From the NCBI GenBank assembly GCA_000004985.1, contig GG738867.1: a stretch of 64,000 nt of DNA, one strand, 5' to 3'. This DNA is from Naegleria gruberi (Eukaryota). This document shows positions 4,038 to 9,656 of this stretch, piece by piece; the stretch's first letter is position 1; the number at the start of each line of letters is the position of its first letter. Position numbers and translations under genes: made by a program. Below the pieces are notes generated by a model that searched no databases, was not told the DNA's origin, and saw nothing but the letters and a program-made list of their open reading frames with translations.

Positions 4038-7000
4038 TTACTTTTTCTTTTTGCTTGCAAGAGAGGGATAGTAATTTGATCTCTTGAGTGTATTACTTGG
4101 ATTAATAGTTTGAGTGAACATAGAGCTTGGTACAGAGCTACTACTAGAAGCAATATTGGATGTTGTTTGGGGAATGCTTTGGGAAATTGGTTCTAGATCA
4201 GTAGAGGAAGGTTGTGAAATTGGAGGAGCATTATTTACAAGCAAACTATTTAGATATTGTACCCATGATTTTGTATTATTTGCTTGTTGTGCTAGTCTTA
4301 ATTGTGGATTGCTCGTTTTCTTAATAACTAAAGTATGAGGGGAACCAACTCTTACTGTGCTTAGAGATAGATATTTTGAAAGAGGATGTAAATTGGATTC
4401 AACATGATTTCTTGTTCCTAAAGCCTCCTTCACTTCACAAACTTGCTCAGTACTATTTTGAAGGAATAAATTAACTCTTAGACAATGGGGACAATTAATA
4501 GTACAATTAAATGTTGGAAGGCGCCAATTGGTTGCATTTGCTTCCTGTTGTTTTCTGAGTGTTGGGCCTAAAAATCCAATACTACAATGAATTAAAACTG
4601 AAAATGCTGGATAAGTGTTGAAAACAGATTTGCCATAAGAATTTTCAATAAATTTGATGAGTGGAAGAAGAATTTTGCAAACTCCACTTAGGTCTGTAAT
4701 TTTTGATATAATTGTTGCGGTAACATTTGATAGGTCATCTGGTATTCCATTTTTACAAATTGTAGAAATAATTTCTTTGCAATTTTCCAGATCAATGTTA
4801 CATGTATTGGTAATAAATTGCTGAACAATATTACCTCTAATATATGAAGAAATGAAATTTGCGCCAGGGTTAGTAGTCAAACTTGTGCAATAGTTCAATA
4901 AAGTTAGAGCTTGACTATAGTTAGATGAAACAATGTCTCTTAATATTGGTTCCATGCAAGTTTGAATACTTTCATTATAAAATGTATTGAGGTAGCCAAT
5001 TACAGAAGGATAATTTTTGATGAATATCTCCTTGTTACTAAACAATATTAATAAGGCAACCATCAATCCTGGGAATGGTTCTAAGTATTTCAAAATAATT
5101 GTCACCTCATTGGGATCTGCTACTTTACAACGTTCAGCCATATATGCTGTAGTGTTGGGAGTAAATGGAATTGCAAACTCACTCATGCAACTCAGTATCT
5201 TTTGAATAAAGTCTGCATGATTTACACCTTGTTTGGTCCGTAAATAACCAAATACTTGAAAGCATAGCTCCGATATTAAGCAAGGATCATTTTGAGATTG
5301 AATAGTTTGGAAAGCATTTTCAGCAATTGATTTGTTGTTAAGGTTCAGTATGGTATATTTGAAAAATTCTTTTTTAAGGTGTTGTAAACCAAAGTTTGTT
5401 ATTAAGAATTGCCAAGATGTGTAAGAAATGTTTTTAGTAGCAATCAATACAGCCAATTTGACATCTTTGACTTTTTCAATAGTGTTCATTAGCATCTTTT
5501 CTGATAGTGAATAGGTGCTTATTAGGTCAGTAATTCTTTTGATGTTCAAAATGCTAGGAGATTGCACCTGTTTGTCAACTATCATATTGAAATATCTTAT
5601 TTTGCAGGTTTCATCCAAGTTATCCAATAATGAGCCGAATGTTCGTTTTGGTATAATTACCAAACACGCAGAAGTGTAAAATTTGCTAGCACTGACACCA
5701 GCATTTCCTGTATGCTCAACCTAGAGAATATTATTTAGAATTTGATTTAAAATAGAGTACTTACAGTTGATCTTTGATGGGGTATTTCTAGTAAAGAAGT
5801 TAAGGGAATAATTGAAGATATATCAACACGATTTAAGCGTGAAGAGAAATCACCATTTCTATCTTTGAGATTTTTCACAAAATAATCAATTTCCTTTTCT
5901 TCCATGTCATCAGAATCTACATCCTCATCATTTTCCTCATCACTGTCATCATATCTATGATAACCTCTGTAAGAATAACCATGATGATAGCCTGAATAGC
6001 TATTTAAATCTCCAGACACTTCTTTCATTAGTTGACCAATACAAAGATAAAATTCATCCCGGTTTCTATTAAAATTTTCAAGCCATTTGTAAACTCTAGC
6101 ATCAGCACCTTTTAAATTACCCACACTTATTCCATCTTTGGTGTATTTATGCTCCAAAATATGAATGATATATTTTCCTTCCCAACTAGTTAGGGTATCA
6201 TTCATATAGTCAATAACATTTTGATTTGAATCTGCACTTGGTGTTAAATGTGATGGTCCCTCGAAAAATATGTTATAAACCAGTGCTAATCTGTATCCGC
6301 TTGTTACTCTGTTAACTTTGTGTTCACAATCACAATAGAATGAAACAAATGATGTTGCATAACTAGATTTAGAGGAATAGTCATACACCACTTCCTTAGA
6401 GTTGTGTTTGACAGTTAGTTCACCTCCAGTATAAATTGATGGGAGATGCACAACTAGTGTGGCAAACATATTTTCCTCCTTTTCTGAATCTCTATGAAAT
6501 TGAAAGTGTCCATCTTCTTCATAGAGCAATAATTTGTACAAGTTAAATCCAATCTCCTTATCTCCAACACCCAATCCTTTTTTAATTTGATTTCCAACCA
6601 ATTCATCTATCATATCTTCCCAGTTTGGATTGAGTATTGCAAATTGATTTGGCTCTAATTGCCAGGTTTTTCTAACTTTTTCATCCACAATTGTTTCCTC
6701 TCCTCTGCCATAAGGTGCTTTTGCTGCAAGTTGAATTATATCATCTGCTTGTTGTTTTGTGACAAGTGGGAGTGAAACATACTTTCTTTCCACACTATTA
6801 TTTTCTGAATTGGGCACAAGTAATTGCAATCCAACAGCAGGATAAGTATCAAATTCTCCTCCCACAGAAAAACTTCCACCTGCAGTAACAGTTGGTATTA
6901 ATTCCTCTATTAATTTGTGCATTCTCCTAGTTGTATATGATGGATGATAGTCTTCTTCTTCATCAGATTCGAGTATAAAATCTTCATCGGATTCTTCCTC

Positions 7001-7453
7001 ATTTTCCTCATCTTCCTCATTTTCAGTTGTTTTGTCATTTTGGTTAATTTCTTCCTCTTCTTCCTCGTCATCACTCGAATCAATAGAAACACATTCTATA
7101 TTATTATTTACATTTTCATTATTATTTAGATTAATTGAACTTTCTGATTCCTCTGTAATATCAATAACGTTATTTCCTTCTCTTGTTTCTGTGGTTTGTT
7201 CCGAAGTCGTTTTGGCATTCTTATTTTCCTTGTCATCTCGATTTTCTTCTTCGGTATCATCCAATGCAATACTATCACCTGATTCCGATATTACATCTTC
7301 AAATGTGGGAGAACTTGTTCGATCATCTTGAATAATTTGTGGTGGTGATGAATTCAAATCCACATCACAATCTTCATCTTCTTGTTCATTTGATTCAAAA
7401 TCAATCGATTCCTCATTTATTATTTCTTGTGGTTGTTGTGTTTCATTTTGCAT
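4038..7453 (-). CDS. Large protein of about 1124 aa. The N-terminal half is acidic and contains a 2OG-Fe(II) oxygenase-like (P4H-type) core; the C-terminal roughly 560 aa are uncharacterised. Exons 5765..7453 and 4038..5720; intron 5721..5764 (GTAAGT..TCTCTAG, 44 nt).
   Basis: ORF 5747..7453 and ORF 4038..5663 join in-frame through a canonical 44-nt intron (...HQRST / VEHTGNAGVSASKFYTSACLVIIPKRTFG...). The N-terminus has D/E-rich tracts, then YKLLLYEEDGHFQFHRDSEKEENMFATLVVHLPSIYTGGELTVKH...YRLALVYNIF. This parallels the HxD...H...R facial-triad arrangement and is similar to the oxygenase core of the 26360..28913 gene (RYKEGNFFKPHMDSHF). The ATG at 7451-7453 has an A-rich upstream context. Confidence 0.5.
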
Positions 7454-7644
7454 TTTTGTTTTGAATTTTCTTTAAAATATAAACAAACAATAATTGAATT
7501 TAAATTATTGAGGGAAGAAAGCTACATTACTAAGCTGTGGTCTTGCAACAAAACTCCGTATGATCAATAGCGCATTAAGCGCATTATCAATGCCTCTATT
7601 TACAAACCAATAGGAGTAGTACCCCTCCGTTGCGTGTCCCTCAG

Positions 7645-9656
7645 ATGAAACATCAGTTCAAAGTAAGATGTTGTTTGATGTTGAGCGGACAATATTATCA
7701 AACAATAAAGAAAAAAAACACAATGATTAATCAAGTTAGAAGATCAAGAGTCGTTAGCTTGTCCAACAACATTAATAAGTACCAACAATTGGTGTTTGAT
7801 CGTGAAACAGTTCATCGCATGTTCACTAATCAAATAGGAAACAAGGTTTTACATCAACAAGCACAGGATGCTTCTTCTACTAATGCTGCTGGACAAGATA
7901 TTTCCAAGTGTCCATATCATCAACAACCACAGCAACCACCACAAGTCATTAAATCATTTGATGAAATTCCTGGACCAAAGGGTTTGCCACTTGTTGGTAA
8001 TTTGTTCCACATCATGAAAGGAGTCAAGAAGAACGCCTCTCCTTACTTTGCCTCATTATGTGAAGAGTATGGAGAAATTGTTAAACTTGATGTGGTGGGA
8101 AAGAAAATGCTATTCTTAGGTAATCCAACTGATATGGAATATCTTTACAAGCATGAAGAAAGAAGAAATGTTGTTGATCCATCTAGAAAGTTTAAACTTG
8201 AAAGAGGGTTACCATTAACTCCAATTGAAATGTATTTGCATGAACCATGGAATGAAACACGTCAACTTTATAATATTGCAATGAAACCAGACTTCCAAAC
8301 TCAAGTTACTTTGCCACAATTAACTGAAATTAATGGTGAATATATTAGAAGAATTATCAAATATTTGGAAGAAACTGATAATCCAGAAAAGTTTAGATTA
8401 GTTGATGGTGTCGGTGCTGTTTCAAGATATGGATTTGATGCAGTGTTGAAAGTTTTTCTAGGTGCTAAACTCACAGACGATGTAACTAAAACTTTCCCAT
8501 TCGATGTTGCTGATTTCGTTAAAGTTTCCACTGAATTCCTCGATGATCCCCTTAGACTCATTTCAAAACCATCTCTCTACAAGTATTTCAAAACAGCCGA
8601 GTACAAGCAAATGGAACAAGCTATGGAAAAGTCTTTATCTTATGCCAATTATGTTATGGATAGATTTAAGAATAATCCAAGTGATAAGCCAAGATTTTAT
8701 GAAACTTTAATGGAACGTTCTAAGGACGAACCAAATCAAATTGCCCTCGTTCAATCTGTAATGATTACGTTCTTACAAGCAGCCATTGATATTACTATGA
8801 GGTAGTGTATAATTAATTTGTCAATTTCTCAAATATTTTACTCTATTTCTAAAATGCTTTTTCTCAATACATATAGAATGTTAGTGAGTAAGTTTCATTT
8901 AAATTTCATGTGTTTGAGTCATACTTAATAATACAGTGATCATGTACAGATTGGCTCACTCTGCAGAATATCAGGAAAAGGTTTATCAAGAATTGTTAGA
9001 AGTTTTTGGTGAACCAACTTTGGAAGAAGTCACCTCTGAAAATGGATTGCACATCACTGCCGAGCAGTATAAGAAATTGAAACTCACCAAACAATTTGTT
9101 GAGGAAGTGTTGCGTGTTAATCCATTTGCCTTCATTGGAGGTGGTAGAATTTTGAGTGATGATATGATTATTCGTGGTTACAAAATTCCAAAAGACACTC
9201 AAGTTTTATGTATTCAAAGATTTGCTAATACTCGTGACGAATTTGTTCCACGTGCAAATGAATTCATTCCAGAACGTCATGAAAAGGGATCTCCTATTGG
9301 ATTGTCCAATAATTATATTAGTACACCTTTTGGTATTGGTGTAAGTTTTAAATTTCACATTATTTAATTGTTAATCATTTTAATGCTTGAATTATGAACT
9401 ATTTCACTTTCTAACATTTAAATAGGCTCGTAAATGTCCTGGAAGTAGAATTGCTCTCCACGAACTTCACATGGCCATCATTAATACAGTAAGACATTTC
9501 AAACTCGAACATAGTAATCCAGAATCATTCCCTCCAACAAGTTACGATCAGGCTCTTCTTTATATTGACTTGGAAAAGAATCCACTCTACTTTACTCCAA
9601 GAGATCATTTAAAGGAACACTTTTATTCTCTTAAACAATCAAAAAAGAATGAATAA
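7645..9656 (+). CDS. Cytochrome P450, mitochondrial-clan-like. Proposed structure: join(7645..8801, 8877..8887, 8937..9340, 9426..9656), including an 11-nt micro-exon.
   Basis: The protein contains FDEIPGPKGLPLVGNLFHI (P450 proline hinge) and the heme loop FGIG/ARKCPGSRIA (FxxGxRxCxG) split by a GTAAGT..AAATAG intron. The I-helix reads FLQAAIDIT. An oxygen-binding-region to PERF-like spacing is restored only if an 11-nt micro-exon (aatgttagtga) sits between two canonical introns, giving AAIDITMRMLVMIMYRLAHSAEYQEKV. The N-terminus is basic and Ser-rich, which could be a mitochondrial presequence. The track start 7630 is a TTG; the first ATG is at 7645. Confidence 0.75.

Follow-up and report, generated by a model that had tools for sequence, protein, structure and literature searches.

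A P450 gene model that stops within the I-helix

Is the cytochrome P450 encoded at one locus of Naegleria gruberi truly cut short within its I-helix, as its public annotation has it, or does the coding sequence continue by way of an exon so small that it was missed? The locus lies on the forward strand of a stretch of 64,000 nucleotides (contig GG738867.1 of assembly GCA_000004985.1; hereafter the window), AT-rich with a G+C content of 30-37%. Its public record (XP_002677295.1, EFC44551.1, UniProt D2VER3, NAEGRDRAFT_67364; P0001 in our protein set) is a 'predicted protein' of 360 aa that is 100% identical to our own model over exon 1. The annotated protein has the C-terminus ...AAIDITMR, its stop being the TAG at 8803-8805, and exon 1 was therefore read through into what we take to be intron 1. 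The protein collection holds no full-length model of this gene and none of its 3' part, so that exons 3 and 4, which carry the heme-binding loop, are unrepresented there, and our literature search found no paper naming the accessions of this P450 gene.

We argue that the 360-aa model is a truncation artefact, produced because an exon of 11 nt was missed. In all likelihood, to judge from the comparisons set out below, the interval 8802-8936 is made up of a constitutive 11-nt coding exon and, on either side of it, a short spliceosomal intron (75 nt upstream, 49 nt downstream).

Predicted exon-intron structure

The predicted gene, join(7723..8801, 8877..8887, 8937..9340, 9426..9656), gives a product of 574 aa. 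Exon 1 (7723..8801; forward strand, like every feature of the gene) is in frame from the ATG at 7723 and comprises 359 codons plus AG, bases 1 and 2 of R360. Its 3' end translates through ...GCA GCC ATT GAT ATT ACT ATG AG at 8801, and both translation and tblastn of the model on the window place the boundary directly past the I-helix motif AAIDIT-M. Intron 1 (8802..8876, 75 nt, phase 2) runs from GTAGTG (8802-8807) to ATATAG (8871-8876). The GT at 8802 is the sole usable donor past codon M359, because read-through meets the TAG at 8803-8805; as a donor, GTAGTG is weak at positions +4 to +6, with an exonic AG preceding it. The probable branch site is TTCTAAA at 8847-8853, a motif that other short candidate introns of the window also carry towards their 3' end.

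The micro-exon itself, AATGTTAGTGA (8877..8887, 11 nt), provides base 3 of R360, the codons of M361, L362 and V363, and base 1 of M364. It is followed by intron 2 (8888..8936, 49 nt, phase 1), which has the consensus donor GTAAGT (8888-8893), ends in ATACAG (8931-8936) and carries a putative YTRAY-like branch site, CTTAAT, at 8924-8929, 8-13 nt before the intron end. Exon 3 (8937..9340) starts with TG ATC ATG TAC AGA TTG, that is, with the TG of M364 followed by IMYRLAHS...PFGIG, and by tblastn encodes the remaining I-helix, the ExxR motif (E420..R423) and the PERH region. Intron 3 (9341..9425, 85 nt, phase 0; GTAAGT...TTCTAAC...AAATAG) separates PFGIG from ARKCPG, as seen both in the sequence and by tblastn, and exon 4 (9426..9656), identified by translation and tblastn, begins ARKCPGSRIA..., includes the heme-ligand Cys and closes with the stop codon TAA at 9654-9656. 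The sequence-only reading on which this analysis builds had proposed these coordinates and splice-site strings for 8802-8936, and all of them are borne out. It had further proposed that an 11-nt exon between a GTAGTG..ATATAG and a GTAAGT..ATACAG intron restores the frame; translation agrees, the spliced product reading AAIDIT-MRMLVM-IMYRL within a 574-aa P450.

Both flanking introns are of viable length, with the boundaries ATATAG/AATGTTAGTGA/GTAAGT. When the window was scanned heuristically for ORF pairs bridged by GT..AG, many candidate introns emerged that have GTAAGT donors and span 38-105 nt. Introns 1 and 2, at 75 and 49 nt, are thus of ordinary size for the window, and the likely ortholog in Willaertia magna has introns of 49-50 nt; intron 1 differs from most of these candidates in having GTAGTG as its donor where they have GTAAGT. 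In the literature, N. gruberi genes are given as having 1.7 exons (about 0.7 introns) each, with introns averaging 203 bp (PMC8296547).

The mature junction under the micro-exon model is ACTATGAG-AATGTTAGTGA-TGATCATGTAC (longer junction string ACTATGAGAATGTTAGTGATGATCATGTAC). Skipping the micro-exon gives ACTATGAG-TGATCATG (longer string ACTATGAGTGATCATGTAC) and a frameshift: when 8801 is joined directly to 8937 the frame is lost and translation ends in DITMSDHVQIGSLCRISGKGLSRIVRSFW at a stop 32 codons past M359, ahead of the heme-binding Cys. Since skipping truncates the protein ahead of its Cys ligand, inclusion of the micro-exon is required for a functional enzyme; and because skipping would break the frame, the micro-exon is presumably constitutive. 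A third junction arises from an alternative AG acceptor at 8948..8949 (forward strand, GTACAG/A), which, paired with the donor at 8802, defines an in-frame intron of 148 nt with the loss of eight I-helix residues; its mature junction is ACTATGAG-ATTGGCTCAC (longer string ACTATGAGATTGGCTCAC). RNA-seq data for N. gruberi exist (ENA PRJEB23822; Grau-Bove et al. 2018, PMC6142364).

Evidence for an 11-nt exon

We regard the 11-mer as an exon rather than a chance occurrence because four independent lines of evidence agree, namely the length of the encoded helix, an enumeration of splicing models, shuffled sequences, and the nucleotides of uninterrupted homologs.

With regard to length, the spacer between D-x-T and [YHF]-R-[LI]-A-H is exactly 8 aa in all heterolobosean homologs that carry the motif (18/18), and the 11-nt model yields the same spacing. 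The alignment with P450 homologs that the sequence-only reading had recommended as a check shows no gap across the I-helix against 21 homologs, the block VMITFLQAAIDITMRMLVMIMYRLAHSAEYQEKVYQELL being gap-free throughout the resulting 22-sequence alignment, insect, cnidarian and placozoan P450s included. The I-helix of the spliced product also aligns without gaps to the solved structures of CYP24A1, CYP11A1 and CYP3A4. In CYP24A1 (3k9v; AAVETT-ANSLMWILYNL) the micro-exon residues fall on NSLM(W), and in CYP3A4 (AGYETT-SSVLSFIMYEL) they fall on SVLS(F). The earlier observation that AAIDIT-MRMLVM-IMYRL has canonical P450 spacing therefore holds both for solved P450s and for the family to which this protein belongs.

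To compare splicing models we enumerated every way of placing one GT/GC..AG intron, or two, with a minimum length of 25 nt, leaving boundaries free and retaining those models that kept the frame and were free of stops, and scored each by its mean global BLOSUM62 score against 17 homolog segments. Twenty-two frame-preserving models were obtained. The 11-nt model scored best (97.4, versus 85.6 for the runner-up) and is the only one of the 22 that is gap-free and of family length. Several nearby candidates fail in specific ways: micro-exons of 23 and 35 nt add 4 and 8 extra residues and leave an intron of 25 nt, while an exon ending at the GTGAGT donor that starts at 8884 would be 7 nt long and out of frame. 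Among single-intron models, whether GT/GC-AG or AT-AC, those with the acceptor at 8936 are never in frame, and all others delete I-helix residues. The same is true of a U12-type (AT-AC) intron: the frame-keeping AT..AC pairs delete or replace residues of the I-helix, and none has an ATATCC donor. The original statement, according to which a single canonical intron could not keep the frame, consequently needs qualification: it is correct as long as the acceptor is fixed at 8936 and incorrect once the acceptor is free, since an intron at 8802-8949 works.

How readily might such an exon appear by chance? We generated 200,000 composition-preserving shuffles of the 135-nt interval and looked in each for AG-N11-GT with both introns at least 30 nt long. 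Some stop-free AG-N11-GT exon was present in 6.9% of the 200,000 shuffles, and an 11-nt exon that fits the homolog columns as well as RMLVM does was found in 43 (43/200,000, p about 2e-4).

The fourth line comes from homologs in which the same stretch is continuous. The micro-exon residues RMLV(M) correspond to RMLC, RLLV and RMMT in the closest homologs. At the nucleotide level, the micro-exon is identical at 9 of 11 bases to ATTGTTAGTCA in a Logan contig (L002), and spliced N. gruberi sequence, ATGAG/AATGTTAGTGA/TGATCATGTACAGATTGG, lines up with the uninterrupted ATGAGATTGTTAGTCAATACCATGTACAGAATTG of the intronless gene on that contig. The W. magna ortholog has the same nucleotides unbroken (ATGAGAATGTTA.. 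/ ATGAGAATGTTATGTATT... / ATGAGAATGTTATGTATTAGTGCTTATCGTTTGG).

Other searches were negative within their scope. The exact spliced 574-aa protein is absent from a collection of 15 billion proteins; a junction-pattern scan of metagenome contigs gave no matches, and no closer relatives were found in metagenomes. In the interval itself we found neither significant RNA structure (z = -0.80) nor an Rfam match, and no ORF competes on either strand. Taking enumeration, homolog spacing, nucleotide match and downstream conservation together, we consider the micro-exon interpretation supported as a comparative prediction, and judge it very probable that the 11-nt exon is used in this P450 gene.

Alternative explanations

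One alternative is a single canonical intron, the 148-nt intron at 8802-8949 (GTAGTG..GTACAG), which would yield a P450 of 566 aa reading ...DITMRLAHS... and would relegate the 11-mer to mere intron sequence. It has simplicity on its side, in that a single splicing event without any tiny exon preserves the frame and is stop-free, and at 148 nt the intron stays under the published N. gruberi mean of 203 bp (PMC8296547). Yet the model scores 63.9 in the enumeration of 22 models, against 97.4 for the micro-exon model, and it removes eight residues, two helical turns, from a block that is without indels in 21 homologs, animal P450s included. If the 11-mer were simply intronic, its match to the homolog at 9 of 11 bases between AG and GT (p about 2e-4) would moreover be left unexplained. 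We therefore hold this reading to be improbable as an account of the main transcript; the product may occur as a minor isoform, and it is possible that the acceptor at 8949 gives rise to such an in-frame isoform or acts as a trap for gene predictors. A non-canonical event might instead yield the mature mRNA, through an intron of non-GT-AG or AT-AC type or because the interval is misassembled, and the atypical donor of intron 1 could be read in this light. However, the AT-AC pairs all fail to reproduce the spacing of the family and lack the U12 donor ATATCC, a fully canonical solution is available, and models without the 11-mer miss RMLV(M), four to five residues common to all homologs. We consider an explanation of this kind very unlikely.

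The 360-aa product might, finally, be real, with the P450 sequence downstream of it decaying, a possibility in agreement with the public annotation; pseudogenisation of the P450 had also been named in the sequence-only reading as something that would speak against a micro-exon. The sequence beyond the interval has a different appearance. Exons 3 and 4 (629 nt, 33% G+C) contain no stop in the predicted frame, as opposed to 5 and 14 (exon 3) and 2 and 7 (exon 4) in the other two frames, and they are 62% (exon 3) and 64% (exon 4) identical to the W. magna ortholog, above the 58% of exon 1. The heme loop FxxGxRxCxG is intact as FGIGARKCPG across exons 3 and 4, as is ExxR, with E420 and R423 in invariant alignment columns. 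A P450 of 360 aa that lacks the Cys ligand is unable to bind heme, which counts against truncation on biochemical grounds. As conservation does not fall off from exon 1 to exons 3 and 4, and these are open in the right frame only, a pseudogene or a truly truncated gene is unlikely, and we assign it as slight a chance as a non-canonical event. The spliced micro-exon model, by comparison, matches Pfam P450 (PF00067) over residues 83-539 with 186.8 bits (cut-off 22.8; E 8e-55) and the solved structures of CYP24A1 (E 6e-19), CYP11A1 (3.5e-17) and CYP3A4 (1.6e-16). We consider a complete P450 of 574 aa, belonging to a heterolobosean-specific family, to be the most likely product of the locus.

History of the flanking introns

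We mapped introns in seven homolog loci; the N. gruberi paralogs P0004, P0006 and P0008 were not among them. The gene for the W. magna protein P0002, which at 59% identity is the likely ortholog, has two annotated introns: one of 49 nt splits the Gly codon of QA-G-IDIT, 19 nt upstream of where N. gruberi has intron 1, and one of 50 nt falls in the Pro codon ahead of FGIG (4519-4568 of contig L001). The Logan-contig homolog P0003 and W. magna P0014 have no introns, and P0007 has none up to the end of its contig, while W. magna P0005, N. fowleri P0009 and N. lovaniensis P0011 have introns at other places. Inside D-x-T-x8-YRLAH none of the seven mapped loci has an intron (0/7), neither N. gruberi position being shared, and metagenome-derived homologs likewise run uninterrupted through this block. 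Note that the micro-exon is accordingly a separate exon in no homolog examined, so that the exon structure is without cross-species conservation.

With no intron at either position in any of the seven homolog loci, both flanking introns look specific to the N. gruberi lineage of this P450 gene, which is the simplest reading of the comparison. On this scenario, two introns would have been gained in that lineage within a once-continuous coding sequence. That the micro-exon was born of two independent lineage-specific gains, 11 nt apart in an uninterrupted I-helix coding block, is a tentative proposal that we find possible but rather doubtful. A search for an introner or repeat origin of the two introns returned only short AT-rich chance matches within the window.

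The intron in the heme loop also varies in position: it lies after PFGIG (phase 0) in N. gruberi, in the Pro codon before FGIG in W. magna P0002, and before or near FGIG in W. magna P0005 and N. fowleri P0009. This shift and the 19-nt offset between the I-helix introns suggest intron turnover in the family.

A possible order of splicing

How might an exon of 11 nt be spliced? Each of the two introns would be recognised across itself (intron definition), as in other genomes with very short introns, and with 75- and 49-nt introns paired in this way exon-definition signals would be unnecessary. Only 11 nt separate the 3' splice site of intron 1 from the 5' splice site of intron 2, which should hinder their joint occupancy, and the introns would therefore probably be removed sequentially. 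Intron 2 probably leaves first, because its donor is the consensus GTAAGT; its removal would fuse the 11 nt to exon 3, and intron 1, whose weaker GTAGTG donor is backed by the exonic AG, would be removed second. In the spliced model the micro-exon supplies R360(part)-M-L-V-M364(part) to the I-helix, 2-6 residues past the AAIDIT oxygen-groove motif; with it the frame is regained, and the helix has precisely the length seen across the family.

Comparison with known micro-exons

The closest analogue is provided by the small constitutive micro-exons of plants (Nat Commun 2022, PMC8831610; MEPDB, PMC12409088), annotation failure included: RNA-seq revealed thousands of plant exons of at most 15 nt, the majority of which reference annotations lacked. 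As described there, plant micro-exons are, like the candidate exon reported here, very short internal coding exons between canonical AG and GT that form part of a conserved domain and keep the frame, and their omission similarly results in a truncated or broken gene model, as with XP_002677295.1. The plant exons were, however, found by RNA-seq and are described in these sources as evolutionarily conserved, whereas the N. gruberi exon is predicted, concerns one gene of one heterolobosean, and is absent from the W. magna ortholog.

The neuronal micro-exons of animals (3-27 nt, regulated by SRRM3/SRRM4) are alike in size class and in forming an in-frame coding insert, and we treat them as a size analogue only. 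They are alternative cassette exons whose inclusion is regulated by tissue and depends on dedicated enhancer proteins, and the introns around them are typically long; those in N. gruberi, a unicellular excavate, are 75 and 49 nt. Vertebrate mini-exons, such as the 6-nt exon of troponin T, are spliced stepwise as an exon-intron-exon unit. They offer an analogy, and no more than that, for the sequential removal of introns around exons too short to bind factors at both sites.

The direct consequence of our analysis is the correction of a public gene model: NAEGRDRAFT_67364, annotated without a heme ligand, becomes what is likely a full P450. The missed exon is an ordinary gene-model error and not a new biological phenomenon, and the understanding of splicing is unchanged by it. 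Heterolobosea probably have ultra-short exons too, as plants and animals are known to, and such exons would break gene prediction there as they do in those groups. Our literature search found no paper linking Naegleria nuclear genes or Heterolobosea to micro-exons, and this one is possibly the first noted in Heterolobosea. Should the flanking introns be recent gains, the locus would be a compact one for the study of intron gain and minimum exon size. If the double gain is true, it would test, in a deep-branching eukaryote, how close to one another introns can insert and what is the smallest exon that intron definition tolerates, and it would hint at more such exons behind truncated N. gruberi 'predicted proteins'.

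Further features of the protein and its neighbourhood

Several observations on the protein stand apart from the question of the exon. Compared with the motif (A/G)Gx(D/E)T(T/S), AAIDIT has the acid and the second Thr, the first Thr being Ile. The residues concerned are D356-I357-T358 (8788-8796), and across the heterolobosean family the first Thr is replaced by Ile, Val, Leu or Ala (D-[IVLA]-T), in contrast to CYP24A1 and CYP3A4 and to the D-T-[TAS] of the animal sequences. The absence of this Thr from the heterolobosean I-helix may point to an atypical oxygen-activation chemistry. Considering best matches only, the nearest non-heterolobosean relatives are of mitochondrial type (CYP24A1, CYP11A1, an insect CYP12A2-like protein and CYP24/CYP11-like proteins of Nematostella and Trichoplax), at about 20-26% identity and barely above CYP3A4. 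The N-terminus is Arg/Ser-rich and presequence-like. About 15-60 residues upstream of the PGP that starts the P450 domain lies a Cys-Pro motif, C63-P-Y-H66 (7909-7920), of the form CP[YFHR] and mostly CPYH, which is kept in all heterolobosean homologs that cover the region (18/18) and is absent from the aligned animal P450s; it recalls heme-regulatory CP motifs.

Two of the homologous loci have features of their own. The N. lovaniensis protein P0010 (928 aa) is annotated with both Nudix hydrolase and P450 domains, and is probably a case of two neighbouring genes merged into one model, not a real fusion. The Logan contig L002 (SRR25266747) carries two P450 paralogs head to head, at 3-473 on the minus strand and 752-2422 on the plus strand, with about 280 nt between them; the ORF on the minus strand shares 53% identity with the N-terminus of P0003.

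In the window itself, intron 3 contains a weak Rfam match to mir-753 (9376-9424; 22.6 bits, the gathering score being 62; E 0.22), which in AT-rich sequence is almost certainly due to chance. Upstream of the P450 gene, a divergent ORF that is acidic and Ser-rich (7000-7455, minus strand) begins at a distance of about 270 nt, and downstream another gene, which has short introns, begins about 155 nt past the P450 stop codon (9811 onward, plus strand).
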